33,188 bases of DNA from a virus. The first letter of the stretch is position 1. Each line of letters begins with the position of its first letter. Below, in pieces: positions 237-32,375 of this stretch. Where the stretch lies: the UHGV virus genome UHGV-0218401; one strand, given 5' to 3'. Position numbers and translations under genes: made by a program. Under the pieces are notes generated by a model. The model was not told the DNA's origin. It searched no databases and was given only the letters and a program-made list of their open reading frames with translations.

Positions 237-297
237 GTTGCCTGATTTTTATGCCGTTTAAAATCATGATGTTAGAAGCATTGCTTTTTAATGATGG

Positions 298-9415: not shown

Positions 9416-9470
9416 GATCAATCCCCTGAATAAAAACCGGGGATGATGCCAGTTAGCCGTTATCTCTGCA

Positions 9471-9496
9471 TTTTCATAAACGTTGGTTTGGGAGAA
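9471..9496. repeat. Invertase crossover site (gix/hix-like, 26 bp), invertase-proximal end
   Basis: ttttcataaacgTTGGTTTGGGAGAA; its right half is identical to the reverse complement of the site at 10926-10951 and resembles hix/gix half-sites. Confidence 0.6.
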
Positions 9497-9826
9497 GCCA
9501 GATATGTCATTCAGCGAGGAGCTAATGTCAATGGAGCATGGATACGCTGGTCAGATGGTGCAATAGAAGTATTTGGAACTGGTGGTTCCAATGATAATGG
9601 GCTGGCTAAAGTCGTTTATCCAATTGCACTACCTAAGCTTTCACGTTTTATCAGCATAGCGGAAAGAATAAGAACAGATTACGAGGCCACACCTAATAAC
9701 GTTCACGTTTCAATGATCGTGGATGACCAGGTCAGTAATACAGGTTTTTATGTCCGCTGCCAGATGTACGACGGAAGACCATCAACAAGTGCTTTTTCCT
9801 GGAGAGTTTATTGTGCGCCTGTTTAA
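9497..9826 (+). CDS. Alternative (currently silent) tail-fibre variable C-terminal segment
   Basis: Plus-strand frame open through the crossover site and sharing the GLGEAR junction codons with H; no start or promoter of its own in this orientation; about 110 codons to TAA at 9824-9826. Confidence 0.45.
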   Translation, partial: ARYVIQRGANVNGAWIRWSDGAIEVFGTGGSNDNGLAKVVYPIALPKLSRFISIAERIRTDYEATPNNVHVSMIVDDQVSNTGFYVRCQMYDGRPSTSAFSWRVYCAPV

Positions 9827-10010: not shown

Positions 10011-10245
10011 CCCCCGGCGCGGTGCTGGTATCTGCTTCCATCACCGCGTCGATATTACCAACATCATATTCAGTCATTTCCGGTTCCGGTGGTGCTATAA
10101 ACTCTCCGTCAGAATAGAACCAACCGACGCCTGCATCTATATGATCAACATTTATAATTTCGCAATTAGAGAATAAATCACCCTCTCCATCCCAGATAAT
10201 AATATTTTTCACCACGCCATGTTCAATCAGAGCAAAATTACTCAT
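9979..10245 (-). CDS. Tail-fibre assembly/chaperone protein (active orientation; gpG position)
   Basis: 88 aa; ATG overlaps the H stop (ATGA); C-terminus ...TSTAPGVIWPVPPEMV resembles the conserved C-terminal end of tail-fibre assembly proteins. Confidence 0.55.
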   Translation of the reverse strand: MSNFALIEHGVVKNIIIWDGEGDLFSNCEIINVDHIDAGVGWFYSDGEFIAPPEPEMTEYDVGNIDAVMEADTSTAPGVIWPVPPEMV

Positions 10246-11987
10246 CAGGCATACTCCTCAACAATAACTATTCCCGGGGCACCGTCACCTCCCGATTGAG
10301 CCTCACTTCCGGCAGGTGCGCAGGCTCCGCCTCCGCCAGCACCAAAGCCCTCAGCTTTACCACCACCACGTCCTCTGAATGATGAAGAACTTGCACCACC
10401 TATACCGCCTGAACCTAATGGTGTATCCCCCCCGGTACCACCTGCTACAGCTTTAACAGAGATAACCATTGCTCCTGGTGTTTTTGCACTACAGCGAAAT
10501 GCTCTTAGTACAGTGCCGGACGATGTCGGACTGGCACCCCATGAAATACCCTGAATATATGATGTGTTTGCAGATGCTCCCCCCGCGCCACCGCCTGTAC
10601 CACCAGGTGCAGTTATCATGGAACCGAAATAAGTTGTGCCACCTTCACTACCTGAATTTCTTCCGGCTCCCCCCCCTTTACCTGCAGCACCGATAATAAC
10701 GTTGACTTCGAAATCATTATCAACCTCGAAAAATGCTTCAATAAATGCGCCGCTCAATCCAGCTCCGGCTGTTGCCTGCTGATTTTCTGTTGTTTCAGGA
10801 ACCCCACCGCCGCCGCCGCCACCACCAGAGGCAATGACCCTTATCTTTTTTGTCCCTGGTGTTGGGATATATTTTCCAGAGCTTTTAAAAATATTCGTGT
10901 TTAACAAACGACCAGAGAATCTGGCTTCTCCCAAACCAAGGTATGCGAGAAGACCAGTTACATCCTTTCCACTCAAATTAGTCAACGTATTGTCCAGCGG
11001 TTGTTTACCTGCCAGCGCATTAAGCATTGTCGTGGCAAAGTTCGGATCATTCCCCAGTGCCGCCGCCAGTTCGTTCAGTGTATCCAGTGCCGCAGGTGCA
11101 GAACCCACCATTGCTGCAATCGCTGATTTCACAAAAGCCGTAGTGGCAATCTGTGTATTGTTGACCGACTGCGCCGCCGTGGGGGCTGTTGGCGTTCCGG
11201 TGAGTACCGGACTCGACAGCGGCGCTTTCAGTGCCAGCGCATTGTTAATGGTGGTACTGAATTTCGGATCATTGTTAATGGCTACGGCTATTTCTTTCAG
11301 CGTGTCCAGCGTGGCTGGCGCACCATTAATAAGAGCCGTCAGTGCCGCCTGAACAAATGCTGTGGTCGCAAGCTGCGTGGTATTATTCCCCGCCGCTGGC
11401 GTTGGCGCTTTGGGGGTTCCGGTAAACGTCGGACTTTCTTTGGGTGCATACTGTGAATGCGGGTCCGGTGCGGCAAGATGTTTTGCCATCAGGTCATCCA
11501 CGTACACCTTCAACTCCAGTGCTTTGTCATCCACATACTTGCGGGTTGCCAGCACTACAGCAGGGTCGATTTTCAGGGTGATATTGTCCGTGCTGCTGGT
11601 TATCAGCACCATGCGCACGGTCTGGGTGCGCCCGCTGCCTTCAGCCAGTTGCGGCTTATAGCTTTCCGGGCAGTTGCCCACGGCAATCAATGCCCCGGAC
11701 TCATCAAACAGGCCCACTTCACGGATCCACCAACCGCCCTCGTTTTCAGGGATCACCTGTTCGGCAATAATCTGGCTGCTGTTCTGCGGGTCGATATAGA
11801 GCATATTCAGCGCAGCCCGGCGTTTCTCATTTACCAGTGCAGTCTGCTTTGCGTCCGGCGTTGGCAATCTTCCGCCGCCATCGCCGACCGCCATATGGGT
11901 AATTTTTAACGGCACACCGAGCGCGGCGGCGCTGGCAAGTTTCGCCGCGCCAATATCCGTCAGCAGGGTATAAAATTTTGTGCTCAT
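10245..11987 (-). CDS. H: Tail fibre protein (P2 gpH-like): constant N-terminal part plus invertible Gly-rich C-terminal part
   Basis: 580 aa; ATG overlaps the I stop; two tandem tail-fibre repeat units of about 60 aa (ATTAFV...); crossover site at codons 346-354; C-terminal 225 aa is Gly-rich (run of 8 Gly). Confidence 0.85.
   Translation of the reverse strand: MSTKFYTLLTDIGAAKLASAAALGVPLKITHMAVGDGGGRLPTPDAKQTALVNEKRRAALNMLYIDPQNSSQIIAEQVIPENEGGWWIREVGLFDESGALIAVGNCPESYKPQLAEGSGRTQTVRMVLITSSTDNITLKIDPAVVLATRKYVDDKALELKVYVDDLMAKHLAAPDPHSQYAPKESPTFTGTPKAPTPAAGNNTTQLATTAFVQAALTALINGAPATLDTLKEIAVAINNDPKFSTTINNALALKAPLSSPVLTGTPTAPTAAQSVNNTQIATTAFVKSAIAAMVGSAPAALDTLNELAAALGNDPNFATTMLNALAGKQPLDNTLTNLSGKDVTGLLAYLGLGEARFSGRLLNTNIFKSSGKYIPTPGTKKIRVIASGGGGGGGGVPETTENQQATAGAGLSGAFIEAFFEVDNDFEVNVIIGAAGKGGGAGRNSGSEGGTTYFGSMITAPGGTGGGAGGASANTSYIQGISWGASPTSSGTVLRAFRCSAKTPGAMVISVKAVAGGTGGDTPLGSGGIGGASSSSFRGRGGGKAEGFGAGGGGACAPAGSEAQSGGDGAPGIVIVEEYA
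10926..10951. repeat. Invertase crossover site (26 bp) inside tail-fibre gene H
   Basis: TTCTCCCAAACCAAggtatgcgagaa; inverted relative to 9471-9496 with 14 bp identical; lies in H codons for LGLGEAR at the constant/variable junction. Confidence 0.6.
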
Positions 11988-13490: not shown

Positions 13491-13836
13491 TCTCTGCTCC
13501 TGTTGATACGGAAAGGGAAACAGGCACACCGTTATTACGCCGCCCGATCAGCTCCACCACCATTGAACCGTCAAAATTGCTATTGATGGTGATGGAATCC
13601 AGCGTCAGCCGTGGCTCCCAGCGACTCAGCGCCACATACACTGCCGACATGACCTGCAGGCGTAATGCCGGATTTTGTGGCTGGTCTATCAGTGTCGACA
13701 GCAGGGAACCATATTCACGACGGGCAATGCGGCTACCCTGCGGTGTCAGTAGAATGTCCCGCACCGACTGACGCAGATGGTCAATATCAGTAATGGCTTT
13801 ACCGCTGGTATTGTTCATCCCGCTATAAAGCGTCAT
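13477..13836 (-). CDS. W: Baseplate wedge protein W (gp25/GPW family)
   Basis: 119 aa; ATG overlaps the V stop; P2 order V-W-J. Confidence 0.8.
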   Translation of the reverse strand: MTLYSGMNNTSGKAITDIDHLRQSVRDILLTPQGSRIARREYGSLLSTLIDQPQNPALRLQVMSAVYVALSRWEPRLTLDSITINSNFDGSMVVELIGRRNNGVPVSLSVSTGAENGSD

Positions 13837-14411
13837 ACCGGGCCTCCGGTTGTGTCGCCGCCTTTCAGGACGCCAGTATGCTGATGTGCATCAACCACAA
13901 TTCCGTTAGAACTCATTGCACCGCCGCCCTGGGTAACACCACCATTGATCACTACTTCGCTGTTAATGCGTGTGCGGTCAGCCTCCAGTACAAACTCACT
14001 GGTTTTCATGGTGATATTGTCGGCGGTCTCAATGACCATTGATTTGATGCCCCTGACATACCAGCGCCCGGTGGCGGGTTCGTATTCAAACCAGCCGCCG
14101 TCAGGATGCTCTGTCACGCAGGCATCCGCCGACGTCGACGGTGGTGCGAACTGATTCGAATAGATGGCGGGCAGCGCAAACGCGGTTTCAAGATTTCCGC
14201 CCAGACTCAGCAGCACCACCTGCTCACCTTCCGATGGTTTCCACCATGTGCGGGCATTCCCGGCACGCAGCGTCAGCCAGCTGATCCAGTTGGTTTCGAG
14301 GTCGCCAGTTTTCACCCGACACAGCCAGTTTGCCCTGTCCACTTCGGTGACTACACCTGTGCGGATCAGGTTGGTGATAAGGCGCATGATTTCGGTTAAT
14401 TGTGCGTTCAT
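13833..14411 (-). CDS. V: Baseplate spike protein V (P2 gpV-like)
   Basis: Start placed at the internal ATG (MNAQLTEIMRLITNL...); the 80-codon N-terminal extension in the ORF track runs into AT-rich intergenic DNA and across the late-promoter dyad, so is probably not coding. Confidence 0.75.
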   Translation of the reverse strand: MNAQLTEIMRLITNLIRTGVVTEVDRANWLCRVKTGDLETNWISWLTLRAGNARTWWKPSEGEQVVLLSLGGNLETAFALPAIYSNQFAPPSTSADACVTEHPDGGWFEYEPATGRWYVRGIKSMVIETADNITMKTSEFVLEADRTRINSEVVINGGVTQGGGAMSSNGIVVDAHQHTGVLKGGDTTGGPV

Positions 14412-14457
14412 AGATATATGATGACAGCTGAAAACTTGTTTATAACTTCTTGCAAAT

Positions 14458-14475
14458 TGTGGTATCGATGGTACA
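14458..14475. promoter_or_regulatory. Ogr-dependent late promoter dyad (TGT-N12-ACA) for the V-W-J-I-H-G operon
   Basis: tgtGGTATCGATGGTaca, centred about 55 nt upstream of the chosen V start; perfect dyad. Confidence 0.45.
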
Positions 14476-14514
14476 AATTGATAAAAGGATAAAAAACAAC
14501 CAATAGGTGGATAA

Positions 14515-15321
14515 ATGAGTGTTATGAATCCAATAAGTTCTAATATATTTAATGCTGAATTTTTAAACACCCCGGCAGCGGCACTTGCCGCATGGATTTC
14601 CATTATTGGAGCTGTTATAACTTTGGTGACGATAGTTATAAGAGCACTATTCAAATATAGAAAATCTCATGATGTAATTTTGAAAAAATCAGGAATACCT
14701 GCGTTTATATTAAATTTTTTTCTTATACGAATATCATTAAAAAGGCTGCCTACTATCACATGGGCTGAAAAATCAATCACGGTTCTCTTTTCACTTCTTT
14801 TTTTGTGTGCAATTTATATTTTTGGTCCAGTTTTCATCCAAGCCATTAGAACCCCACCAAATAGCACATTGCTTTATTGGATAAAATCCGGTGAATCATT
14901 TTATATGTCAAAAAAACTGGCGACTGCAGCTACAATATTAACCACTCCTGATTGGGAAATATCAAAGGATGATTGCGAAGAGTCATCCTCTGCCAGTACA
15001 GAGAAGTACAAATCATTAACTATCGAACATAAAGAAATTCTTTGTAAACTACTAACCACTGATGAAGGGAATGCTTACATTGATGAAGAAGTCAAGAATT
15101 TCGTTAAAGACAAATTCTTTATCTATTCCTTTGCCCCAACAACCATATTTATTCTATTATGGATTTCTTTGGGTTTTATACTGACCATTCACTATTCTAA
15201 AAAAGTTAGGAAATATATTCTGACTGAACAAAAAAATGCAATTCATTGGGCATATGGTGAATTCAAGACAGAAGGAATCTATTCAATATATCAAGAGTTA
15301 GAACGTAAGACTCACCATTAA
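14515..15321 (+). CDS. AT-rich moron: polytopic membrane protein of unknown function (268 aa)
   Basis: ATG with AGGTGGA RBS; several hydrophobic helices (e.g. AALAAWISIIGAVITLVTIVIRALF, ITVLFSLLFLCAIYIFGPVF, TTIFILLWISLGFILTIHY); strongly AT-rich; divergent from V and convergent with S; occupies the S-V position where P2 carries orf30. Confidence 0.7.
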   Translation: MSVMNPISSNIFNAEFLNTPAAALAAWISIIGAVITLVTIVIRALFKYRKSHDVILKKSGIPAFILNFFLIRISLKRLPTITWAEKSITVLFSLLFLCAIYIFGPVFIQAIRTPPNSTLLYWIKSGESFYMSKKLATAATILTTPDWEISKDDCEESSSASTEKYKSLTIEHKEILCKLLTTDEGNAYIDEEVKNFVKDKFFIYSFAPTTIFILLWISLGFILTIHYSKKVRKYILTEQKNAIHWAYGEFKTEGIYSIYQELERKTHH

Positions 15322-15709
15322 GACCCAACAAACGACGCTCTGCGTAACGCACTTCCGGTCCTTTGCGGCTGACGCGATCGCGCAGGCCATAATGGTGAAC
15401 GCGGGCAATGCGCTGCACCTTACTTTCAAACTGTACGCTGGCAGAGTCGGCGCTGGCGGCGGTTTTCAGGTATTTGGTGGTGCGCAGCTTTGCAAACATC
15501 TGACGTTTGATGCGGCCTTTTTTACTGCGCGCCGTGACCTTGCGCGGTTCATAACTGCTGCCATCTGGATTGCGCTGCATCCTGATATTCTGCTGCTGTG
15601 TCCGGCGCAGTTCCTGCGCCAGCTGGCGCATCATGCGGCTTCTTGCGACTGGTTCCAGATTCGCCAGTAAGGCACTAAGCCAGTCGTCCACTTTCTGCAG
15701 TTCAGCCAC
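15263..15709 (-). CDS. S: Tail completion protein S (P2 gpS-like)
   Basis: 148 aa; GTG start overlapping the R stop; last about 20 codons lie in the AT-rich moron DNA and overlap the moron 3' end. Confidence 0.75.
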   Translation of the reverse strand: MAELQKVDDWLSALLANLEPVARSRMMRQLAQELRRTQQQNIRMQRNPDGSSYEPRKVTARSKKGRIKRQMFAKLRTTKYLKTAASADSASVQFESKVQRIARVHHYGLRDRVSRKGPEVRYAERRLLGLNGESYVLTLDILNRFLLS

Positions 15710-21212: not shown

Positions 21213-22979
21213 ATGAACACCACACTGACACCCGCAGATCTCGATCCCCGTCGGCAGGCCATGCTGCTGTACTTTCAGGGATACCGCGTAGCCCGCATTG
21301 CTGAAATGCTGGGCGAGAAAGTTGCAACCGTTCACAGCTGGAAAAAACGCGACAAGTGGGGTGACTATGGGCCGCTGGATCAGATGCAGCTCACCACCGC
21401 CGCACGCTACTGCCAGCTCATTATGAAGGAGCACAAAGAAGGGAAAGATTTCAAAGAGATTGACCTGCTGGCGCGCCAGTCGGAACGCCACGCGCGGATC
21501 GGCAAGTTTAACAATGGCGGCAACGAAGCCGACTTAAACCCAAACGTCGCCAACCGCAACAAAGGCCCGCGCCGTCAGCCGGAAAAGAATGTTTTCACCG
21601 ATGAACAGATTGAGAAGCTGGAAGAAATCTTCCATTCCTCCATGTTCAACTACCAGCGCCACTGGTGGGAAGCCGGAAAAACCAACCGCATCCGCAACCT
21701 GCTGAAGTCACGCCAGATCGGCGCGACCTTTTACTTTGCCCGTGAAGCCCTGATTGACGCCCTGCTGACCGGACGTAACCAGATTTTCCTTTCCGCCAGC
21801 AAGGCACAGGCCCACGTCTTTAAGCAGTACATCATCGACTTCGCCAAAGAAGTGGAAGTGGAGCTGAAAGGCGATCCGATGGTGCTTCCCAACGGGGCCA
21901 CGCTTTACTTCCTCGGCACCAATGCCCGCACGGCCCAGAGTTACCACGGCAACCTGTATCTGGATGAATATTTCTGGATACCGAAATTCCAGGAGCTGCG
22001 CAAAGTGGCTTCCGGTATGGCTATTCACAAAAAATGGCGACAGACCTATTTTTCCACGCCATCCAGCCTGACACACAGTGCTTATCCGTTCTGGTCCGGT
22101 GCACTGTTCAACCGTGGGCGCAACAAAGCCGATAAGGTGGACATCGACCTGTCCCACAGCAACCTGGCCCCCGGCCTGCTGTGCGCAGATGGGCAATACC
22201 GCCAGATAGTCACCGTGGAAGATGCGGTGCGCGGCGGCTGTAACCTGTTCGACCTCGACCAGCTGCGCATGGAGTACAGCCCGGACGAATACCAGAACCT
22301 GCTGATGTGCGAGTTTGTGGACGATCTCGCGTCCGTGTTCCCGCTCAGCGAGCTGCAGGCGTGCATGGTGGACAGCTGGGAAGTCTGGAGCGACTTTCAT
22401 GCACTGGCGCTGCGCCCGTTTGGCTGGCACGAAGTGTGGATCGGTTATGACCCGGCAAAAGGTACGCAGAACGGCGACAGCGCCGGATGCGTGGTGGTGG
22501 CACCGCCAGCCGTGCCGGGCGGTAAGTTCCGCATTCTTGAGCGTCACCAGTGGCGCGGGATGGACTTCCGCGCCCAGGCTGACGCCATCAAAAAACTGAC
22601 TGAACAGTACAACGTGACATACATCGGTATCGACTCAACCGGCGTCGGTCACGGGGTTTACGAGAACGTGAAAGCGTTTTTTCCTGCCGTCCGGGAGTTT
22701 GTCTACAACCCCAACGTTAAAAATGCCCTGGTACTCAAGGCCTACGACATTATCAGTCACCGCCGTCTGGAGTTTGACGCCGGACACACCGACATAGCGC
22801 AGTCATTTATGGCAATCCGTCGCGCCACCACCGCCAGCGGCAACCGCCCGACCTATGAAGCCAGCCGCAGCGAAGAAGCCAGCCATGCCGATCTGGCGTG
22901 GGCAACAATGCACGCACTGTTTAACGAACCGCTGCAGGGCGAGTCCGCCAATACCAGCAATATTGTGGAGATTTTTTGA
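21213..22979 (+). CDS. P: Terminase large subunit, ATPase (P2 gpP-like)
   Basis: 588 aa; translation consistent with P2 gpP as recalled; stop overlaps the Q start (TGATG). Confidence 0.9.
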   Translation: MNTTLTPADLDPRRQAMLLYFQGYRVARIAEMLGEKVATVHSWKKRDKWGDYGPLDQMQLTTAARYCQLIMKEHKEGKDFKEIDLLARQSERHARIGKFNNGGNEADLNPNVANRNKGPRRQPEKNVFTDEQIEKLEEIFHSSMFNYQRHWWEAGKTNRIRNLLKSRQIGATFYFAREALIDALLTGRNQIFLSASKAQAHVFKQYIIDFAKEVEVELKGDPMVLPNGATLYFLGTNARTAQSYHGNLYLDEYFWIPKFQELRKVASGMAIHKKWRQTYFSTPSSLTHSAYPFWSGALFNRGRNKADKVDIDLSHSNLAPGLLCADGQYRQIVTVEDAVRGGCNLFDLDQLRMEYSPDEYQNLLMCEFVDDLASVFPLSELQACMVDSWEVWSDFHALALRPFGWHEVWIGYDPAKGTQNGDSAGCVVVAPPAVPGGKFRILERHQWRGMDFRAQADAIKKLTEQYNVTYIGIDSTGVGHGVYENVKAFFPAVREFVYNPNVKNALVLKAYDIISHRRLEFDAGHTDIAQSFMAIRRATTASGNRPTYEASRSEEASHADLAWATMHALFNEPLQGESANTSNIVEIF

Positions 22980-24007
22980 TGGGAAAGAGTAAGAAAAACC
23001 GCACTGCGGCGACGAATCAGATCCAGCATAAAAACCAAACTTCAGCCGAAGCATTCAGCTTCGGCGATCCCGTTCCTGTTCTGGACCGCCGAGAATTACT
23101 GGACTATGTGGAATGCGTACAGATGGACCGTTGGTATGAGCCGCCCGTCAGCTTTGACGGACTGGCGCGCACCTTCCGCGCTGCCGTGCATCACAGTTCC
23201 CCGATTGCAGTAAAGTGCAACATTCTGACCAGTACCTATATCCCTCATCCTCTGCTCAGCCAGCAGGCTTTTTCGCGTTTTGTGCAGGACTATCTGGTAT
23301 TTGGCAACGCCTATCTGGAGAAACGCACGAACCGCTTCGGTGAAGTGATCGCCCTTGAGCCTGCGCTGGCAAAATACACCCGACGCGGATTAGACCTGGA
23401 TACCTACTGGTTTGTGCAATACGGTATGACAACCCAGCCGTATCAGTTCACGAAAGGCAGCATCTTTCATCTGATGGAACCCGATATCAACCAGGAGATC
23501 TACGGCCTGCCCGGTTATCTTTCTGCTATTCCGTCCGCCCTGCTCAATGAGTCCGCCACGCTGTTCCGTCGAAAGTATTACATAAACGGCAGTCATGCTG
23601 GCTTCATCATGTACATGACCGATGCCGCGCAGAACCAGGAGGATGTGAACAACCTCCGCAACGCGATGAAAAGCGCCAAAGGACCGGGTAACTTCCGCAA
23701 CCTGTTTATGTACTCGCCTAACGGCAAAAAGGACGGGCTTCAGATCATCCCATTGTCAGAAGTCGCGGCGAAGGATGAGTTTTTGAATATCAAGAACGTG
23801 AGCCGTGATGACATGATGGCTGCGCACCGCGTGCCGCCGCAAATGATGGGGATAATGCCTAATAATGTTGGGGGGTTTGGGGATGTGGAGAAGGCTAGTA
23901 AGGTTTTTGTTATAAATGAACTGATACCTTTACAAAAACGGTTACAAGAACTAAATTATTGGATAGATGAAGATATAATCCAATTTGAAGATTATAGTTT
24001 AACTTAA
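22979..24007 (+). CDS. Q: Portal protein (P2 gpQ-like)
   Basis: ATG at 22979 (the ORF track starts one codon earlier at TTG); 342 aa; the last roughly 50 codons shift to AT-rich composition. Confidence 0.9.
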   Translation: MGKSKKNRTAATNQIQHKNQTSAEAFSFGDPVPVLDRRELLDYVECVQMDRWYEPPVSFDGLARTFRAAVHHSSPIAVKCNILTSTYIPHPLLSQQAFSRFVQDYLVFGNAYLEKRTNRFGEVIALEPALAKYTRRGLDLDTYWFVQYGMTTQPYQFTKGSIFHLMEPDINQEIYGLPGYLSAIPSALLNESATLFRRKYYINGSHAGFIMYMTDAAQNQEDVNNLRNAMKSAKGPGNFRNLFMYSPNGKKDGLQIIPLSEVAAKDEFLNIKNVSRDDMMAAHRVPPQMMGIMPNNVGGFGDVEKASKVFVINELIPLQKRLQELNYWIDEDIIQFEDYSLT

Positions 24008-24021
24008 ATAATGATAACACA

Positions 24022-24038
24022 GGGCCTAGAATCGGCCC
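24022..24038. terminator. Possible bidirectional terminator hairpin between Q and the HNH gene
   Basis: gggcc-tagaatc-ggccc stem-loop in the 37-bp gap between convergent genes; the flanks are only moderately T/A-rich. Confidence 0.3.
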
Positions 24039-24044
24039 TAAAAA

Positions 24045-24716
24045 TTAAAAACCAAGCTCATCTCTGATTCTTGGGAATTTTTTCATTACTCGAATATCAG
24101 TTAATAAATGCCAACGCCAAAAAACAGAAAATGGATATGATACATTACACATTGGCTTTAGCTTATTCTTGGCCTCTTGGATTTCTTGTTCTGTGCTTCG
24201 ATCACTGACAAGTTTCATTCTCCAACCAGTAAAGTAAAACAATTCATCTTGTAACTTCTCTGAGAGATTTGCTCTTGTAATGCCCCTCAACCCCGTACTC
24301 GAAGAGTTAAAACACTTATCTAATAATTTGACTGTATTTAAAACCTTTCTACTTGGTCTTTTTCTTCTTGGGTATACTTGAACACCACTCGTTATAGCGT
24401 TCCCTGCGAGATGAACAATCTCACTGAAAACATCAACATCACTCTTTGTGCAATCAAGTAAGTTTTCAAAAGAATCACTTTTAATACTATTGCATCGACT
24501 GCAAGCTAAAAATAGATTGTTCCAATCATATTTGAGCTCATCAAGATCACGATGTGGAATAAAATGTTCTATCTCTGGATCCATAAGATTACCTTGCTCA
24601 CAGAGATAACATTTTCCATGAAATATTTCGTCTAAAGCATTTACAACTGTTTTATGGTTATATACTTTTCTCGACAAGCATTGAGGTGCAGGAATGTTTC
24701 TAGTAACATTAAACAT
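24045..24716 (-). CDS. ptuB: HNH endonuclease, Septu PtuB-like
   Basis: Motifs CYLCE...EHFIPH...NLFLACSRCNSIK (Cys pairs and His/Asn of an HNH fold); 223 aa; overlaps the upstream ATPase gene; AT-rich. My manual indexing is 1 nt off the ORF track here. Confidence 0.7.
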   Translation of the reverse strand: MFNVTRNIPAPQCLSRKVYNHKTVVNALDEIFHGKCYLCEQGNLMDPEIEHFIPHRDLDELKYDWNNLFLACSRCNSIKSDSFENLLDCTKSDVDVFSEIVHLAGNAITSGVQVYPRRKRPSRKVLNTVKLLDKCFNSSSTGLRGITRANLSEKLQDELFYFTGWRMKLVSDRSTEQEIQEAKNKLKPMCNVSYPFSVFWRWHLLTDIRVMKKFPRIRDELGF

Positions 24717-25947
24717 CGTCTTCCCTTTCGCTATAATCTAAATATTTACTCTTAGCGATCATAAAAGCTGCTTTTGAACTTTTATCAAGAAAATCAATAC
24801 TCTTCTGTAACGTTTTCATTATAGAATGAAATCTATCGTCGAAGAGATTATTTTCTACTAAAGTCATTAATTCTTTAACTAATGCATTTAGCTTATCCGA
24901 AGATACATCCTCACCCAACAATCCCTTTATAATTGCTGTGTAAGAATACAATGATAAATCACCCATCTGATCCAATGTTGAGAGATTAAATATAATCGCA
25001 TCAGATACTGATTGGATTACGAAAGGTGAATGCGTAGAAACAATAAATTGTATTTGCGGAAAAGATGATGAAAAAAAACTAAATACTTTCTTTTGCAATG
25101 TTACATGAAGATGAGCATCAATTTCATCAATAAGTACTATCCCTGTCATATCATGTTTTCTGATTTTATCAAGCTCTGCTTTTATCAATAAATCAGTATA
25201 AATAGAAAGAATTGATGAAAAACCAGATGACAACTTATCAAGTCCAAATGGTTCCTTATTATTTTGTAAAAGATAGATTTTCAACTTGTCGAGATCAAAA
25301 TCCATTCTAATACTTTCATCTTCAAAAAGTTCTTTTAAGTCATCATTAATACTCTCAATAATATCAAAGGCTCTTTTATAGTCATCATCCTTGCCCACTC
25401 CCTTACTGACTAAAGCATAATTCCACAATGTAACTATGTATCTTTCAAAATACATACCAGCATCAATCTTAGAATTATTTCTCTGTGCGTTCCCATACTC
25501 AGTTAACAACAAATCGAGGCTGCTAATCTTACCATCATTTTTTATTTTCGCTTCTCGAATAGCAGGAAATAATCTTATAATTGATTTTTTCTTTTTTGCA
25601 GCAACCCTGAAATCAACCACATCATTAAAAGTAATATCAAAGCTCTCAAATTCTTTTAATTTTTCTTTCAGTCTCTCAATTTCTTCGTTTAAATAGCTAT
25701 AATTACCATCCCCTCTATTTGAATACTTTAAGTTTTCTTGACTGGAATTCAATTCCTTTTGTAGCTGCTCCTTAGTATAAGGATCATGTGAATTAATCGA
25801 TTTTTCTATAAACTCATAAATATTCTCGATCAACCTAGTTTTACCAGAGCCATTATCTCCTGATATTATTAGATTCTTACCATCAAGATTTAATGTGTAA
25901 GGCTCATCGTTCCTTTTAAAGAAGATAGTTTCGATGAAATGTCGCAT
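24709..25947 (-). CDS. ptuA: P-loop ATPase (AAA_15/21-like), Septu PtuA-like
   Basis: Walker A GDNGSGKT, Walker B VLIDEIDAHLH, and STHSP after Walker B; start taken at the ATG at 25947 preceded by GGGAGGA (the ORF track starts 5 codons earlier); 412 aa. Confidence 0.7.
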   Translation of the reverse strand: MRHFIETIFFKRNDEPYTLNLDGKNLIISGDNGSGKTRLIENIYEFIEKSINSHDPYTKEQLQKELNSSQENLKYSNRGDGNYSYLNEEIERLKEKLKEFESFDITFNDVVDFRVAAKKKKSIIRLFPAIREAKIKNDGKISSLDLLLTEYGNAQRNNSKIDAGMYFERYIVTLWNYALVSKGVGKDDDYKRAFDIIESINDDLKELFEDESIRMDFDLDKLKIYLLQNNKEPFGLDKLSSGFSSILSIYTDLLIKAELDKIRKHDMTGIVLIDEIDAHLHVTLQKKVFSFFSSSFPQIQFIVSTHSPFVIQSVSDAIIFNLSTLDQMGDLSLYSYTAIIKGLLGEDVSSDKLNALVKELMTLVENNLFDDRFHSIMKTLQKSIDFLDKSSKAAFMIAKSKYLDYSEREDDV

Positions 25948-26037
25948 TATTCCTCCCGTCATACTTAACAGCTTTTAGATAATATGACATTACATGTTAG
26001 ATTTCATCCGTTTTGTGAACATATCCACTGCCGCGCG

Positions 26038-26056
26038 CTCGTATCCCCGCCACGCC
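26038..26056. other. Probable cos site (19-nt cohesive end region, 186/P2-like)
   Basis: Minus strand reads GGCGTGGCGGGGATACGAG; the first 13 nt match the 186 cohesive end GGCGTGGCGGGGAAAGCAT as I recall it (P2: GGCGAGGCGGGGAAAGCAC), and are followed by GCGCGC. Confidence 0.5.
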
Positions 26057-26097
26057 TGCCCGCTTTATGTAGTGGTTTTCATGCACCTGCATGACAT

Positions 26098-26125
26098 GAG
26101 CAAAAGCCCGCCAGTTCTGGCGGGC
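26098..26125 (-). terminator. Rho-independent terminator downstream of the kinase cassette
   Basis: Minus-strand hairpin gcccgccag-aact-ggcgggc followed by TTTTGC. Confidence 0.45.
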
Positions 26126-26436
26126 CTTAACAAAAACGAGCCTCAAACGTTCATGCAAACTCATGCAGCATAGACATACACTACATCAACAGCATCCATT
26201 GCTATCATTTCCAGTTCGCTTCCTACAACATCATTGCGAATAGTTATGTTACCAAGCGGCTTTTTCATACCTTTTCGGCATGACACTTCAGACGCACCAA
26301 TACTGACGTGTAATGCTTCCCCCGCAACGTCAACCCACTTAATGGTAATTTAATGTAGTTGCATGAGACGAAAAAATCTCCATAGTTGACAGACTCTATA
26401 AATGCAGTATCACTAGCAAGCATGAATAAACATGCA

Positions 26437-27141
26437 TCATCTAACAGATACTTTTGCATAAATCAAAGGCCTATCCGAAGAGCCATTTTTACGTACGACC
26501 ACTCCACTGATATCATGGTTTTTACCAAGATCTCGTAATGAGGCGCACAATGCCTTGTTGACATATCCTAGATGATTGTCGTTTTTCGTTACTAATATGG
26601 CCAGCGGATCAACAGTATTGGTATCTTCATTGCGCAATATGACTTCATCACCAATTGATATCTCGTCAAGAGCTAGACGCCCTTCCTTAATCATGTGTCT
26701 CGTTCCGGCGACCTCCATGACATAATCAAAAGGTGGCCGAATAGAAGACAAGTCTGGGACAAAATAAAAACCATCACTAGCCACTTTTCCGCCAGTACAA
26801 GCGAGCAAAACGAAGTCATTCTCTCTAAAATCAGCAGGAAGACGAAACGTCAGCAAGTAATCGGCAAAATCTTCTCTTTTCCTAGAGGGTAACCTTCTTG
26901 AAAAGGTTTGCATAACGTCTTTGCGATGAGTCGTAACTTTTATGTCAAAAGCAGGAAAACCGTGAAAGCCTTTATCCACAGCTTTAGCAAAATCTTTGCT
27001 ATCCGTAAGATAATTAAACTCGTAGCCTTCAGACTCATCTTGAAGAAGTTCACCAACGACATAGCGAGAGCCGCCGTCGGTCGGTTGCCATGTCAGTAAG
27101 AGCCTACTTGGCATGGGAATTTTTTCTATTAAGATAGTCAT
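26437..27141 (-). CDS. Hypothetical protein (234 aa), third gene of the exonuclease-kinase cassette
   Basis: ATG overlaps the kinase stop (ATGA), implying translational coupling; AT-rich; no motif I can recognise by eye. Confidence 0.6.
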   Translation of the reverse strand: MTILIEKIPMPSRLLLTWQPTDGGSRYVVGELLQDESEGYEFNYLTDSKDFAKAVDKGFHGFPAFDIKVTTHRKDVMQTFSRRLPSRKREDFADYLLTFRLPADFRENDFVLLACTGGKVASDGFYFVPDLSSIRPPFDYVMEVAGTRHMIKEGRLALDEISIGDEVILRNEDTNTVDPLAILVTKNDNHLGYVNKALCASLRDLGKNHDISGVVVRKNGSSDRPLIYAKVSVR

Positions 27142-28049
27142 GAAGTAACACCTTTAATCAGTTCAATACGCATGTTTGTTACACGAACAATCCATGCAGC
27201 ACGTTCTCTAGTCAGCGGAACAGGGCAGTTTATTTCCGTCAACTCCGCAAAAGTTGAGTCCCAAAAGTCATGGTTCAAACGAGCCAGTCTTTCAGCTACC
27301 CGCTGTTTTAATTCTTCTTTTTTATCACAAAGTTCTTTGATTAACTCTAAATGACCTAATCTCTGATACTCATCTTTGCCCAGAGTCTTACGCAAATGAT
27401 GCTTTCCCCGGCTAACATGCTCCCTGAGTCTATGATCGGTCCAATCAGCAACATGTTCCGGAAAACGTTCGTAGCATAAGCTCGTACCATTATCGAAAAA
27501 TGGTGCAAGCTGACACTCGCTGGTTAAAGGTGAGAAGATAAACCCCCAGTTTTCTTGATGTCTATCTGTATTACCTATTACTGCGTCAAAGAGAGCCATA
27601 TTCTCCAACCACTCAACATAGTCAACTTTAAGAGCTTTCGCGATAATCCTCAGCCCTTCAATGGAATGCTTAGCTCCTTTCTCACGATCAAAATTTGGAT
27701 CTCTTCGAACAAAGTAATCACCAGCGGGAGCAAATTTCTCATAATCTTTATGATGAAACCACTCAATGAGGGCCCCGCAAAACGTATGCCCCAAATCATT
27801 AGTCTTTAACGAAGGAACTGCTTTGGGGACATTAAAACCAAGCTGCAATCCAATCCTGTAGGCAACGATCTCACACCAAAATTGATCTGGGTATTTTTTA
27901 ATACTTCTCTTAAAAAGATACGGCCACGATGCTTTGATACCATGGGGGGCAACATCAGGGGAAATAACCAATGCCTTAGAGCGAGCACCAACAGGATACT
28001 GTGCGAAAACATCTAGCTCAGTCCAATAGGTTACATCTAAGCAATCCAT
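27138..28049 (-). CDS. HipA-like Ser/Thr protein kinase (HipA_C-type core, 303 aa)
   Basis: Catalytic-loop signature VIGNTDRHQENWGF (compare HipA ...GATDGHAKNFS); AGGA RBS; ATG start; 15-nt gap after the exonuclease gene. Confidence 0.65.
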   Translation of the reverse strand: MDCLDVTYWTELDVFAQYPVGARSKALVISPDVAPHGIKASWPYLFKRSIKKYPDQFWCEIVAYRIGLQLGFNVPKAVPSLKTNDLGHTFCGALIEWFHHKDYEKFAPAGDYFVRRDPNFDREKGAKHSIEGLRIIAKALKVDYVEWLENMALFDAVIGNTDRHQENWGFIFSPLTSECQLAPFFDNGTSLCYERFPEHVADWTDHRLREHVSRGKHHLRKTLGKDEYQRLGHLELIKELCDKKEELKQRVAERLARLNHDFWDSTFAELTEINCPVPLTRERAAWIVRVTNMRIELIKGVTS

Positions 28050-28064
28050 AGCTAAGTCCTATAT

Positions 28065-28610
28065 TTATTTTTTATTTAAATTCATATAGATGTGAGAAAC
28101 CTGTGCGATCTGAAATAAAACATCATCGAATGCTGTGTGCCTAATGCCAGTGAAATTTTTATCAGCATGAGAAAAAATTCCTTTGCTTTCACCAAGTGCT
28201 AAGATGGTTCTAACGTCAAGAGTATCTCTGAATGACCATGGGCAATCCAGACCCGCCTGTAACAGGGCATGATGCATGATCGTGCAGTCAAACTCTTTCC
28301 CGTTTCCCCACACTTTTACTCGGCCAGTACGATTATGAAGAATAAATGCCACAAATTCATTCAGAACCTCTAAAAGGTCCTTAGTGCCATCAAAATTTTC
28401 GTTTTTAGCTTCAGTACTTTGATTCATCCACCACTTTACAGTAGAGGGGGCAATGGTTCTGCCTGCTTGTTCATGATCAAGCGAAATAACTTGATAGAAA
28501 CCCGGACCAATCTCGCCAGTCTCCGGCACGAAAAAAGCCGCACCAACTGAAAGGATATAAGCTGTTTTTTCAACATCCAATGTTTCTATATCTAACATTA
28601 CATGATTCAT
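28065..28610 (-). CDS. DEDDh-type 3'-5' exonuclease (DnaQ/RNase T-like fold)
   Basis: Exo I MLDIETLD (D-x-E), Exo II VWGNGKEFD, Exo III H-x4-D in GIRHTAFDDV; ATG at 28610 chosen (ORF track begins at a TTG three codons earlier); about 181 aa. Confidence 0.7.
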   Translation of the reverse strand: MNHVMLDIETLDVEKTAYILSVGAAFFVPETGEIGPGFYQVISLDHEQAGRTIAPSTVKWWMNQSTEAKNENFDGTKDLLEVLNEFVAFILHNRTGRVKVWGNGKEFDCTIMHHALLQAGLDCPWSFRDTLDVRTILALGESKGIFSHADKNFTGIRHTAFDDVLFQIAQVSHIYMNLNKK

Positions 28611-28783
28611 AAGAAGCAATTGAAACCATTTAGTAAAAATTGAAAGCTATCACCACATTAATGCATGGCATATACATTTGTGGACGAAAACAAGTATTCT
28701 GATTATAACCCAAGTGAAAATCTCAAGTGTCGTAACTTTCACTCGGTTGTTTTCAGTTTCGAAAAACTACTGGGAAGATCCAT

Positions 28784-29106: not shown

Positions 29107-31521
29107 TTAATACAGGTTCCGCCACTTATCATCTTCCTGCAAACGCTGGTTCCGATAGAAGATACGCAGGCCTGCTCCTGACGGAATACTGCCACCGCGA
29201 AGGAGCAAATCGACCTCTTTCTCGCTGCCATCAAATCCTCTTGACTTCAGTTCATAGACGAGCTGCTGACGCTGATACTCTGTAATTCGCTGTTTGTAGT
29301 CTTTACGCCGTTTCGGTTTCATCAGGCGTAATCTTGCTGCCAGTTCCTGGCGCTCTTTTTTGCTCATACTGTGCAGGTAATCGTGCAACTCCTTGTCATC
29401 CATACAGGTAATGTCAGTTCTGGGATCCCCATCTGTTGATTTATCTTTCTCCTGTTGGTTCAAATTTTCAGCAAGGGGACAGTTATTGCCACGAGTCCAA
29501 GGGGCGCAAGCGCCCTGGTCGGCTGCCGCCTCCTGAACGTCAACGGCCTTACGAACCATTTTCCACTTCACCGCATGAGTGCAGATCTTGCCCTCTGCAA
29601 TGGGTGACCAGATGCCATAAATACGAATACCGTGATCGCCATATGCGGTCGGTTCTTCGTTGATTTCATAAGCAGTTCTGATGAGGTGATATTTGCGGGG
29701 AACCAGTACGCCGCCCTGCTTCATGATGTAGGTGGCAAAACAACCAGCATCAGCAGCAGCCAGGATTGCATCAAGACGCGGGTTATCCAGTACCGGCGCA
29801 CCTGCTTTTTTGTCACCCTGTTGCCTTGCCGCCTGACCAGCCAGCAATCGCAGTTCACGGTAAGCCTGACGCCCCGGAATGCCAAAGAAGCGGAATTGCT
29901 GAACACGATGCAGAGACGCCCAGGCATTAACGTATTCAGCGTTATCACGCAGGGATTTACCCGTTTCCTTGCTGATCTCCCCAGCCAGACCACGCCCGTC
30001 AATGTTCTTACTGATGTATTTCGCGATATAGCTTGTTGGCGTACCTTTGCGCGGGTTTATCAGCTCAGACTTAAAGCGTGGTCCCGTGTTATTGCCCAGC
30101 TCCTCACGGTCTTCACGGATGGCAAACTTACGCAGTAATGCAGTGATGGCTCGGCGGTCTTTTTTACGCATGAAACACATGAGATGCCAGTGCACAGTAC
30201 CGTCATGATGCGGCTCAGCTACCCGCACGCCATACCAGCGCAACTCGGCTTTATGCATAGCCTTACGAAATGCAGCAAACATGCCGACCAGATAATCGCT
30301 ACTTTGTCTTACCGTCGCGTTTGTCCAGGTCGGGTTTGGTCTGCCGTTATTGAGCGTGGAATGGAAACGCGACGGACAGGTGATAGTGTAGAAAACGGCA
30401 CAGTCACTGCGCATTTCCGCGATAAGCTCCAGACCTTTAACACAGGCCATCATCTCATTGCGGCGATGCGCCGGGTTGCTGCTGCTGGCGTTTACCACAT
30501 CTTCCATATCCAGCGTGTCGCCGTCTTCGTTCACCAGTTCATGAGAACGAAAAAACTCCAGCGACTTACGGCGCTGCTCACGTTTATGCATCACGGCTTC
30601 ATAGCTGACATAGGGGGATGCTTTTTTGCTGACCAGGCAGACAGCACGCAACTGCTCTTCCCGCCATTCGCAACGCATCTTCCATAATTTCCGATACCAC
30701 CAGTCGGCACACAACATACGCGCCAGCGAACCCGGGATGAGTTCATAGGGCACTGGTTTGCGGCGGTTTCTTTTCCGACGAAGTTTCTCAAACGCAGGCG
30801 GGATAACATCCAGACGCAGGGTTTCCGCTGCCACCTTTTCCCATGTCTTGCGGATTTCTTCTGGCTTAACGTCATCGGTGGCATACAAATCACCACAAGC
30901 GTCCTCAAGACACATGCTCATATGCGCTGCTACCAGGGTGGACAGGCGTTTCACCTGATCCTGGCTCATTTCAGGCAGGATCAGCAGACCCTCCAGCCCT
31001 TGATGGCTTGCCATAAAACGGAAAGAAACAGATAGCTGACTGTCACGTACACAATCCAGTCGCTCCAGACATGGCTTAATCGTCTCACGCAAATAGCGGG
31101 AATAAGCCTTTGGCCTGCCCAGGCTGCTGAAGTATTCAATACGTTGCATCAGCGGCTTGCTGATATGGGAAGGCTGGGCGTTTACGTCCGCCAGAATGAC
31201 CATGTCCGGATTAAAACGCTGCTGCTCATGCGCCAGCTTTGCCCGGCTAATGAGCTTATCCTGCTCCATTTCGCGCTGGACAGGATCACGGGATTCATTA
31301 AAGAAATAACGCTCCCAGACCTGCTCACTCAGTGCCTCGCGGCGCAGTTGTTCCTGCTCGTTATCGGCAGCGTACAGAGTGATCAGGTTTGAAAGTGCAG
31401 ACTCCGGCGCAACTTCCGCCGGGTCCAGATAAGGGTTAATGGCCTTTTTCGAGCCGTTCCATGAAAATGCTGCGGCGGCCTCGTTAAAGCCGCTGCAATT
31501 GTTCATATCGTCATGACTCAT
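29107..31521 (-). CDS. A: Rolling-circle replication initiator (P2 gpA-like)
   Basis: HUH motif TVHWHLMCF and tandem-Tyr active-site region SYIAKYISK; ATG at 31521 with GGAG RBS (the ORF track starts at the GTG 2 codons earlier); ATGA overlap with the dam stop. Confidence 0.9.
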
Positions 31522-32375
31522 ACACACACTCCGTACACGGCAGAACTATCCACGCCACGCGAAGGATCAAATCCCAACCAGCAGCTCGGCCCGGAAACAG
31601 CAATGATTTCTGTTGCAGATTTACCCTCGCCAGCTGACACGCCGATGCTGCGTTTTGCCTTGATATAGTGGTGAGTAAAATTGCGATACAGCGAACGAAT
31701 CAGGGATGTGTCATTGTTAGAAACAATGACCGGATGTCCTTCTGATGACCGATGTTCAAGAATGGATGCCAGGTGATACTGGTCATCTTCAGTGAAACCA
31801 TCAGTGTGATAGCCGGAAAACGTACCGTCATACGGCGGATCGCAATACACCACATCCCCCACCTGCAGCATCGCCAGCGTTTCATCAAAGCTCGCGCAGA
31901 TAAACGTTGCCCGCTGGGCTTTCTCTGCAAATGCGCGAATTTCTTTTTCAGGGAAATACGGATTTTTATAATTACCGTAGGGAATGTTGAAATACCCGCT
32001 CTTGTTATAGCGACATAAACCACGGTAACCGTGACGATTGAGATACAGGAAATATATCGCCTTCATGAAATCAGTAATTTCAGTTGAGTAATTAAACTCC
32101 TGTCTTATGTTGTAATAAGCCAGCTCACTGTTTGCTTCCTCAAATAAAACTTTGGCACGAGATATAAACGCTTCGCAATCAGCGGCAATCTTTTTATAGA
32201 GGTTGATTAAATCAGGATTAATATCCGCAACCAGATAGCTGGGGTAATCCGTCGCCATCATCACAGCACAAGAACCCGCGAAAGGTTCAACCAGTCGCGG
32301 GCCAGCAGGAAGGTATTTTTTCAGTTCGGACATAATGGCGGTTTTATTACCCGCCCATTTCAGGATGGTGCTCAT
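31518..32375 (-). CDS. dam: DNA adenine methyltransferase (Dam-like, GATC class)
   Basis: Motif [10 protein letters not shown] and motif IV DPPY ([10 protein letters not shown]), and overall collinearity with E. coli Dam (KWAG(G/N)K, LYLNR.GY.GLCRYN); start at the ATG at 32375 with GGAGG RBS. Confidence 0.85.

Follow-up and report, generated by a model that had tools for sequence, protein, structure and literature searches.

A probable stand-alone type I Septu system in the cargo slot between portal gene Q and cos of a P2/186-like Escherichia coli prophage

The two genes between portal gene Q and the cos site of UHGV-0218401, a P2/186-like prophage of E. coli, very probably form a stand-alone Septu anti-phage system of type I that occupies the Q-cos slot as exchangeable cargo. 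The window, i.e. the whole stretch of 33,188 nucleotides that was analysed, has the gene order Q (22976-24007), Septu pair, cos (26038-26056), PDC-M03 module and replication gene A (29107-31527). The spacer between Q and cos measures about 2.0 kb, versus about 170 nt in P2 and 186, and the listing of open reading frames places only ptuA and ptuB in it. The assignment is correct but ordinary, being that of a known system in a known hotspot. The features on the Q side of cos are as follows:

22976..24007, plus strand: portal gene Q, which bounds the slot; homologous E. coli records carry the annotation phage portal protein
24020..24040: intergenic GC-rich hairpin where Q and ptuB converge, a terminator-like site on the minus strand with a 7-bp stem containing five GC pairs
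24045..24716, minus strand: ptuB, Septu HNH nuclease of 223 aa (PADLOC, Pfam HNH, invariant residues, fold)
24709..25947, minus strand: ptuA, Septu ABC-type ATPase of 412 aa (PADLOC, Pfam, motifs, fold)
25979..26007, minus strand: candidate sigma-70-like promoter for ptuAB within the cassette (ATGAAA-17-TATTAT, 9 of 12 consensus positions matched), a weak consensus match from a scan whose yield was no higher than in shuffled sequence

The first-pass annotation had described two overlapping AT-rich genes, and both open reading frames are present as it gave them, on the same strand with ptuA first, sharing 8 nt (ATGTTTAA) and with a GC content of about 31%. The composition of the pair is AT-rich and foreign; GC is 0.30-0.35 across 24001-26000, versus about 0.55 in the structural genes. 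The longest open reading frame for ptuA spans 24709..25962 on the minus strand (417 aa). Translation probably starts at the second ATG (25947), giving a protein of 412 aa, because a GGGAGG Shine-Dalgarno sequence lies 5 nt upstream of it, the PADLOC alignment begins at residue 6, and PGAP annotates 412 aa in the enterotoxigenic E. coli (ETEC) and Enterobacter copies.

The product of ptuA matches the PADLOC PtuA profile PDLC00268 with an E-value of 1.1e-121, residues 6-413 aligning to profile positions 1-409 of 411, and contains the Pfam domains AAA_21, AAA_15 and SMC_N. In the 412-residue numbering, the Walker A motif GDNGSGKT occupies residues 30-37, the signature LSSG is at 239, the Walker B motif IVLIDE at 270-275 and the H-loop THS at 305. 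Among 53 PtuA homologues there is no variation in the residues of Walker A, the signature, Walker B, the D-loop and the H-loop. The AlphaFold2 model has a pLDDT of 82.6, and its best 50 matches in the Protein Data Bank (PDB) are all PtuA chains. The Pfam domains AAA_15 and AAA_21 are shared with the ABC-ATPases of other defence families, and the protein might be thought to belong to OLD, Gabija GajA or PARIS AriA, its pairing with an HNH protein being a coincidence. AriA chains are indeed found in a search of PDB sequences, and P2 itself carries old near cos. However, the AriA matches are weak (1.4e-4, versus 3.8e-14 to 2e-10 for PtuA chains), AriA is absent from the best 50 fold matches, and 24 of the 25 best PADLOC matches are PtuA models, the remaining one being the retron ATPase_I-A. 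Pfam detects a Toprim domain in neither protein, and the partner of the ATPase is a genuine PtuB. An assignment to OLD, GajA or AriA, the probability of which we regard as practically negligible, is refuted by the profile and fold rankings.

The signature motif of this PtuA reads LSSGF, not LSGGQ. In the stand-alone E. coli Septu the signature glutamine is absent too, and that protein has no ATPase activity (PMC12819146). Given these two observations, the PtuA described here may bind ATP rather than hydrolyse it.

PtuB is matched over its full length by the PADLOC PtuB profile PDLC00331 (1.8e-82), and Pfam HNH scores 32.1 bits, above the cut-off of 21.4. The motif consists of CYLC (from residue 36), His51, Asn67 and CSRCN (72-76), of which Cys36, Cys39, His51, Asn67, Cys72, Cys75 and Asn76 are invariant among 53 homologues. 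A phmmer search of PtuB against PDB sequences gave no match, so the HNH/PtuB fold had to come from the predicted structure. The AlphaFold2 model, with a pLDDT of 93.3, has PtuB chains as its top 11 PDB matches, aligned over the whole length (about 220 columns). The earlier reading of a P-loop ATPase with Walker A GDNGSGKT and Walker B DE, followed by an HNH nuclease in the PtuA-PtuB arrangement of Septu, is thus borne out: the motifs are in place, both PADLOC profiles match end to end, Pfam HNH exceeds its gathering score, and the significant PDB matches of the PtuB model are PtuB chains only.

Retron type I-A effectors are themselves PtuA-PtuB homologues, and the pair could in principle be the effector half of such a retron (Ec78/Eco7-like), either orphaned or served by a reverse transcriptase whose gene lies at 386-1156, at the opposite end of the prophage. 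An RVT_1 open reading frame is present in the window, the PADLOC models ATPase_I-A (4.2e-26) and HNH_I-A (1.5e-8) match as well, and retron PtuA and PtuB chains rank first among the structural matches. This dominance of retron chains among the fold matches reflects the much larger number of them that has been deposited. The retron effectors (Ec78/Eco7, Ec83) have homologous ATPase and HNH folds and the same HNH catalytic core, but the Septu profiles (1e-121 for PtuA and 1e-82 for PtuB) far outscore the retron I-A profiles, and the NCBIfam models for retron Ec78 remain far under their cut-offs (NF041760, 86 bits versus 500; NF041761, 23.7 versus 150). At 412 aa, versus about 550 aa for retron PtuA, the protein is missing around 140 residues, including the N-terminal extension that, with a helical flap also absent here, binds the reverse transcriptase and msDNA (PMC12819146). 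No reverse transcriptase open reading frame or Rfam retron RNA lies between Q and cos. The enzyme encoded at 386-1156 gives better matches to RT_VI and RT_I-B than to RT_I-A, and it is found in four E. coli genomes, none of them among the five that carry this Septu. A split retron made up of this reverse transcriptase and ptuAB was therefore rejected, the two occurring in different genomes and the reverse transcriptase not being of type I-A. The retron I-A interpretation is largely refuted, and we consider it highly improbable.

The stand-alone Septu pair is intact. Compared with the Enterobacter copy, dN/dS is 0.078 for ptuA and 0.080 for ptuB, at dS values of 0.5-0.76, and on this sequence comparison the genes are judged real and under strong purifying selection. 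Prophage cargo is often degraded, and in the DS26-1 relative an IS66 element sits in the same slot, so a decaying, non-functional and passively carried remnant has to be considered. Such decay is nevertheless very unlikely: both open reading frames are full length with respect to the profiles, all catalytic residues are retained, dN/dS is 0.08 across this range of dS, and the coupled 8-nt overlap is kept, like the arrangement itself, in the homologue loci. By their sequence, ptuA and ptuB form a translationally coupled operon with an upstream region of its own. In alignments, the spacer between cos and ptuA, which contains the candidate promoter, is kept in the Enterobacter copy and not in relatives with other cargo. 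At the other end of the pair, the hairpin sits between the stop codons of Q (24007) and ptuB (24045), and the equivalent place in P2 and 186 holds the tQ/tW terminators; the hairpin is likely to terminate both Q and ptuB.

The cassette is framed by the final ~70 nt of Q and by the cos core. The Q protein is 94-96% identical to the portal protein of 80 IMG/VR P2-like contigs, and homology on the Q side to relatives with other cargo stops at 23936-24014. The features at cos and on its A side are:

26032..26185: conserved cos core of about 155 nt between two variable cargo slots (sequence sharing)
26038..26056, minus strand: cos cohesive end GGCGTGGCGGGGATACGAG, where the packaged genome has its left end (aligned with the end junctions of P2 and 186)
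26437..28619, minus strand: second cargo module, a PDC-M03 candidate system (PADLOC and Pfam), comprising the three genes below
26437-27141, minus strand: HIRAN protein (Pfam HIRAN)
27138-28049, minus strand: HipA-like kinase (Pfam HipA_C)
28065-28619, minus strand: Rv2179c-like 3'-5' exonuclease (Pfam)

The cos site was spotted by eye and then confirmed by alignment with the P2 and 186 junctions. The first 13 nt of the cohesive end are the same as in phage 186, while four of the last six positions differ. A literal search for the P2 cohesive end gave no match at up to three mismatches. The lone match of the corresponding 186 search, at 26313-26331, is spurious, the true site being at 26056-26038 according to the junction alignment. 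An identical 19-mer is present 88-90 nt upstream of ptuA in sister loci of Enterobacter and E. coli. Within 23900-26450, the cos core is the only widely shared part, occurring in 1276 of 5426 E. coli genomes and in 58 phage records. In a multiple alignment, the homology on the Q side ends about 6 nt past the cohesive end.

HNH genes beside terminase genes are common in cos phages. As the pair adjoins cos, the portal gene and the terminase gene, the HNH protein might instead be a packaging accessory, like the HNH endonucleases of HK97-like phages that aid terminase at cos, with the ATPase as its partner. We consider this extremely improbable, because P2 and 186 package with a gene-free spacer of about 170 nt, and neither gene has a homologue in the 80 closest relatives, whose slots are filled by unrelated cargo; an HK97-style packaging HNH protein was rejected on these grounds. 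Furthermore, the composition of the pair is foreign, and the similarity of PtuB to PtuB profiles and folds extends over the entire protein, the PtuA-binding C-terminal domain included.

With the cohesive end at 26056..26038 and the Q stop at 24007, the Septu pair lies on the Q side of cos, where the first-pass annotation had put it. That annotation had also proposed two cargo modules flanking cos, and the second is found at 26437-28619, between cos and gene A. It matches PADLOC PDC-M03B (1.3e-36) and PDC-M03A (4.1e-36). By eye, its kinase and HIRAN protein look identical or near-identical to those of system 121 of Rousset et al. 2022 (Table S5B), the exonuclease being a different variant. The implication that the Q-side position is unusual does not hold. 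Of 74 close relatives, 72 have 0.5 kb or more of AT-rich cargo of diverse kinds in the Q-cos slot, and other P2-like prophages carry diverged Septu copies of the same lineage at this position. The gpA-gpQ interval around cos is a published defence hotspot of P2 in which Septu is already listed (PMC9122126), and it is also covered in PMC13586616. The locus described here has variable AT-rich cargo between gene A and gene Q around a conserved cos, as in the definition of that hotspot (PMC9122126).

The gpA-gpQ hotspot is really two slots, which are parted by the cos core of about 155 nt and assort independently. The same Septu cassette, at 99.1% identity, is found in five ETEC genomes with other genes across cos, and the HIRAN side is found in other genomes with different cargo on the Q side. 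Neither this Septu nor the trio of HipA, HIRAN and exonuclease genes is present in the 80 closest IMG/VR P2-like contigs. The slot on the Q side is almost always filled in this lineage, whereas P2 and 186, the reference phages, have it empty. Many of the Q-cos cargo proteins of relatives match defence families, and 51 of 52 representative open reading frames are oriented from cos to Q, convergent with the late P-Q operon. With cargo oriented in this way, the phage could use antisense read-through to damp its own defence cassette while growing lytically.

Exact-protein look-ups yielded Septu pairs of 91% and 52% identity in the same slot of other prophages, with cos 88-90 nt upstream of ptuA. 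The allele of the window and the 52%-identical one occupy the exact same position in different P2-like prophages. This shared position, together with the distance of 88-90 nt between the ptuA start and the cos end, suggests long residence and divergence in place, not repeated capture. One might go further and regard the compact Septu clade as a lineage adapted to P2-like phages, possibly with a different trigger or target, and with damping of the cassette by antisense read-through; we hold this to be unlikely. If true, the trigger or target could differ from that of characterised Septu systems and be, for instance, rival P2-like phages or P4 satellites.

In its general organisation the pair resembles stand-alone type I Septu (Doron et al. 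2018; 8EE4, 8EEA and 8SUX; EcB88), having an ABC/SMC-type ATPase gene followed by that of an HNH nuclease with a helical C-terminal domain, no reverse transcriptase, and fold matches to PtuA and PtuB of 8EEA. The absence of the canonical signature glutamine is likewise shared with stand-alone E. coli Septu (PMC12819146). In contrast, identity to the solved E. coli Septu chains is only about 13-15% (13-20% for any PtuA or PtuB of solved structure), and both proteins are smaller, PtuA having 412 versus 465 aa and PtuB 223 versus about 234 aa. The Septu of Rousset et al. 2022 (Table S5B, system 105, 30 occurrences) is likewise a system of this kind and comes from the same E. coli P2-like hotspot, but it is of another sequence lineage: PtuA aligns to it in the C-terminal ATPase lobe only (39% over 88 residues) and PtuB at the HNH motif only (32% over 65 residues). 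P2 old and tin and other cos-proximal cargo are comparable in being AT-rich, non-essential exclusion genes next to cos that block competing phages, and P2 OLD is also a nuclease coupled to an ABC-ATPase. However, old and tin are on the A side of cos, and OLD consists of one polypeptide, whose nuclease is of the Toprim type, whereas the window encodes, on the Q side, an ATPase and a separate HNH protein.

For stand-alone PtuAB, a hexamer, ATP-inhibited nicking and sensing of tail fibres have been described (PMC12819146), while Septu EcB88 cleaves tRNA-Tyr, its phage resistance needing Walker A/B and HNH (PMC13096335). Transposing these properties to the prophage, the ptuAB pair would be expressed constitutively in the lysogen. 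PtuA would oligomerise, as in the inflammasome-like hexamer of the E. coli stand-alone Septu, its C-terminal helices holding PtuB through the helical C-terminal domain of the latter, and the nuclease would stay inactive as long as ATP is bound. When a competing phage infects, the HNH nuclease would be freed, the cue perhaps being a drop in ATP, or else a tail fibre or other structural protein of the phage. Phage replication would then be halted at the expense of host growth, in a manner resembling abortive infection, and the prophage would gain by the exclusion of rival phages. The cos core would serve as shared homology for the independent swapping of the flanking cassettes among P2-like phages. 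The putative PtuA-PtuB complex and PtuA oligomerisation are modelled on 8EEA, 8SUX and PMC12819146, our own models being of monomers; trigger, oligomeric state and nucleic-acid target of this allele are likewise extrapolated from characterised homologues. As the allele is very divergent from all Septu systems studied, it would be a reasonable extra case for asking if Septu generally acts by cleaving tRNA-Tyr or by nicking DNA.

The main use of the assignment is in annotation. The RefSeq copies of the two proteins are labelled just "AAA family ATPase" and "HNH endonuclease" and can now be named PtuA and PtuB.

The window encodes a P2/186-like prophage, in which the genes and sites bearing on the Septu pair (ATPase gene ptuA and HNH nuclease gene ptuB) are the following:

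386-1156, minus strand, reverse transcriptase (RVT_1, 256 aa), at the opposite end of the prophage from ptuAB
21213-22979, plus strand, terminase gene P
22976-24007, plus strand, portal gene Q
24040-24020, GC-rich hairpin at the cassette end, common to the convergent Q
24045-24716, minus strand, ptuB open reading frame, 223 aa
24709-25962, minus strand, ptuA, longest open reading frame, 417 aa
26007-25979, weak sigma-70-like site, promoter candidate
26056-26038, minus strand, cohesive end of the packaging site cos, located by aligning the P2 and 186 junctions
26437-27141, minus strand, HIRAN-domain protein (PADLOC PDC-M03B)
27138-28049, minus strand, HipA_C kinase (PADLOC PDC-M03A)
28065-28619, minus strand, Rv2179c-like (Rv2179c/DUF5051-type) 3'-5' exonuclease
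29107-31527, replication gene A (Phage_GPA)

The two overlapping, AT-rich genes that the first-pass annotation had read as a Septu-like pair are indeed present. They overlap by 8 nt on the strand opposite P and Q, and the GC content across 24001-26000 is 0.30-0.35, against about 0.55 in the structural genes. The second ATG of ptuA, at 25947, is most likely the start codon, giving a protein of 412 aa, because GGGAGG sits 5 nt 5' of it, the PADLOC alignment begins only at residue 6, and gene callers assign that same length to the homologues in ETEC and Enterobacter. Comparison with the Enterobacter copy (88-91% identity) gives dN/dS values of 0.078 (ptuA) and 0.080 (ptuB), at dS 0.48-0.76; therefore, both are genuine genes under selection.

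PtuA contains the ABC-ATPase motifs GDNGSGKT, LSSG, IVLIDE and THS, and PtuB the HNH motif residues CYLC, H51, N67 and CSRCN, comprising the motifs quoted previously and the remaining signatures of both families; all are invariant in alignments of 53 homologues per protein. The PADLOC profiles match end to end, PDLC00268 (PtuA) with 1.1e-121 (residues 6-413 aligned to positions 1-409 of the 411 in the profile) and PDLC00331 (PtuB) with 1.8e-82 (residues 1-219 on positions 1-220 of 222). Pfam assigns AAA_21, AAA_15 and SMC_N to PtuA and HNH, exceeding the gathering score, to PtuB. A sequence search of the PDB gave no match for PtuB, and the structures of both proteins were therefore predicted, from the homologue alignments. 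The PtuB model (pLDDT 93.3, pTM 0.89) has 11 PDB matches with E-values no worse than about 1e-3, every one a PtuB chain aligned over its whole length, from retrons Ec78, Ec83 and Eco7 and the E. coli Septu complex 8EEA. An HNH fold in the second protein is thus supported by both Pfam and structure. Assignment of the ATPase to OLD, GajA or AriA was considered and rejected: 24 of its best 25 PADLOC matches are PtuA models, the other being a retron I-A ATPase; its PDB sequence matches are PtuA chains (3.8e-14 to 1e-9) plus a much weaker AriA (1.4e-4); and the best 50 fold matches of its model (pLDDT 82.6) are exclusively PtuA chains. The proposed PtuA-PtuB identity is borne out by these profiles and folds, and the pair is an intact, coupled operon with all catalytic residues, carried as foreign cargo of the prophage.

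A retron link for ptuAB was also weighed and rejected. The two genes are the only ones between Q and cos, and an Rfam search of the window found no retron RNA, the sole match being the host sRNA RybB. The NCBIfam equivalogs for retron Ec78 PtuA and PtuB match only locally, with 86 bits against a cut-off of 500 and 23.7 against 150, respectively. Retron PtuA exceeds the window protein by about 140 residues, and this extra length forms an N-terminal extension and a helical flap binding reverse transcriptase and msDNA (PMC12819146). The distant reverse transcriptase at 386-1156 has as its best PADLOC matches a CRISPR-associated RT model, RT_VI and RT_I-B (about 1e-17), RT_I-A being poorer; it occurs in four E. 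coli genomes, none among the five with the window Septu. The pair is a stand-alone, retron-free Septu.

Literal searches of the window with the P2 and 186 cohesive ends did not locate cos. Alignment to the P2 and 186 junctions places the cohesive end, GGCGTGGCGGGGATACGAG, at 26056-26038; it equals the phage 186 end over the first 13 nt and differs beyond. The pair therefore lies on the Q side of cos, as had been presumed. Q ends with a stop codon at base 187 of P2, and the portal gene of 186 stops at base 196; the reference Q-cos spacer therefore measures about 170 nt, with nothing in it but a terminator, whereas that of the window is 2030 nt long and occupied by ptuAB. In a multiple alignment of 14 cos regions, the conserved cos core spans about 155 nt (window 26032-26185), made up of some 130 nt of A-side sequence, the cohesive end of 19 nt and CGCGCG; towards Q, the lineages cease to be homologous at most about 6 nt past the cohesive end. 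At the other border, homology with differently loaded relatives ends at 23936-24014, inside the last 70 nt of Q. These borders define an exchangeable cassette of about 2.0 kb, which carries its own upstream region, and the position of the recombination boundary in Q implies that C-terminal residues of Q move with the adjoining cargo in some lineages.

On the other side of cos, a cargo of three genes (HIRAN, HipA_C and exonuclease) fills the interval to A. The first-pass annotation had two cargo modules flanking cos, and both its observation and its interpretation prove correct. The A-side module is system 121 of Rousset et al. 2022 (Table S5B, PMC9122126), a DUF5051 / HipA_C / HIRAN system with 25 occurrences; the printed kinase and HIRAN sequences are, by eye, apparently identical or nearly so to those of the window. 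In that study an 'Exonuclease + HipA' construct, pFR108, was cloned; it is absent from the three systems called active in the main text. The module also resembles hipIN-type kinase/antitoxin modules (Gerdes et al. 2021) and matches exonuclease-HipA-HIRAN clusters described in PMC11706625.

This layout is ordinary. The cos-proximal gpA-gpQ interval was described as the defence hotspot of P2 by Rousset et al. 2022 (PMC9122126), who counted 1,650 arrangements among 18,150 loci and listed a Septu as system 105, and a 2026 survey of 1,511 P2-like prophages confirms it as the main hotspot (PMC13586616). Our survey covered the 80 IMG/VR contigs whose portal genes are nearest to that of the window (94-96% identity); cos was located in 74 of them, and there the stretch between the Q stop and cos was measured. 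The median is 1.8 kb; the slot measures at least 532 nt in 72 loci and is 'empty' as in P2/186 (about 190 nt) in two. In 21 of 70 loci, cos and A are separated by no more than the minimal distance of about 804 nt. The contents of the Q-cos slot vary greatly and are AT-rich, with a mean GC of 0.37. Among the representative slot ORFs of at least 150 aa, 51 of 52 have the orientation of ptuAB, reading from cos to Q and so converging on the late P-Q operon. This strong orientation bias is a mildly new, descriptive point. PADLOC matched 138 models (E up to 1e-10) on 51 representative slot proteins, including AbiU, several retron reverse transcriptases, HEC-06 and PDC-S59.

Four loci carry another PDC-M03 variant in the Q-cos slot (PDC-M03A kinase, 2.7e-122; PDC-M03B HIRAN partner, 3.4e-93; L063:5630-6541 and L047:3094-3831 in the relatives). 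Since PDC-M03 is on the A side in the window, both slots share one cargo pool. Five ETEC genomes carry window 23900-26181, containing the Septu genes and cos, at 99.1% identity together with different A-side cargo; the HIRAN side recurs at 99-99.8% identity in further genomes, and in the one inspected, DS26-1, the Q-side slot holds DUF6953 and an IS66 element. What is widely shared is the cos core alone (1276 of 5426 E. coli genomes). The published hotspot is thus two slots split by the cos core and assorting independently, which is mildly new and descriptive. The pair itself is already known: a known system, recognised end to end by PADLOC, in a routinely filled slot of a known hotspot.

As an allele the window Septu is rare, but the theme it belongs to is common. 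It is present in none of the 80 closest IMG/VR relatives and in five of the 5426 complete E. coli genomes; a sister E. coli pair, 52% identical, is in eight of these and is listed in 937 contig-index blocks. An Enterobacter pair is closer (PtuB 91%, PtuA 88% identical). Both pairs are convergent with the portal gene and have a cos 19-mer identical to that of the window 88-90 nt upstream of ptuA. The system 105 Septu aligns only over the C-terminal ATPase lobe of PtuA (39% over 88 residues) and the HNH motif of PtuB (32% over 65 residues); it belongs to a different lineage. The compact Septu clade of the window appears to have long resided in the Q-cos slot, also a mildly new point.

By analogy with characterised systems, the mechanism is likely to be growth arrest by an infection-activated HNH nuclease, a reading we hold with good confidence. 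PtuA would oligomerise, as the stand-alone E. coli Septu forms an inflammasome-like hexamer according to PMC12819146, citing Li et al. 2024, and its C-terminal helices would hold the helical C-terminal domain of PtuB. ATP would keep the nuclease quiet; the same account describes less DNA nicking with rising ATP. The window PtuA (LSSGF), like the stand-alone E. coli PtuA (PMC12819146), lacks the signature-motif Gln and may therefore bind ATP rather than hydrolyse it through turnover. A phage cue would switch the complex on, tail-fibre sensing having been reported for Septu (PMC12819146, citing Li et al. 2024). In E. coli Septu EcB88, T6 infection leads to cleavage of tRNA-Tyr in the variable loop, and protection, abortive-infection-like in behaviour, requires the Walker A/B and HNH residues (PMC13096335). 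The target here might be tRNA-Tyr or DNA; the window clade shares only 13-20% identity with any PtuA or PtuB examined to date.

Elsewhere in the prophage, a 64-aa hydrophobic ORF overlaps the reverse transcriptase. Their block (386-1313, minus strand) lies between the late activator ogr (1560-1811) and the host flank, a further cargo slot at the prophage end, and is 99.9% identical in four complete E. coli genomes without the window Septu. RybB (161-239, plus strand, Rfam 105 bits) and ybjL border this end, identifying the host as E. coli and the site as the rybB-ybjL locus. A serine invertase (Resolvase + HTH_7; 8849-9421, minus strand) lies beside 33-nt inverted repeats (9471-9503 and 10919-10951), 85% complementary and 1.4 kb apart. 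One repeat falls within a 580-aa ORF (10245-11987), whose position suggests that it is the tail-fibre gene; the arrangement resembles an invertible tail-fibre segment of the Gin/Cin type, which would serve to switch host range. A DUF6216 protein gene (14515-15321, plus strand), without a PADLOC match, lies within an island of low GC (0.35-0.40). Baseplate gene V (13833-14654) and tail-completion gene S (15263-15709) flank it and run on the other strand, at what is presumably the P2 orf30 insertion slot.
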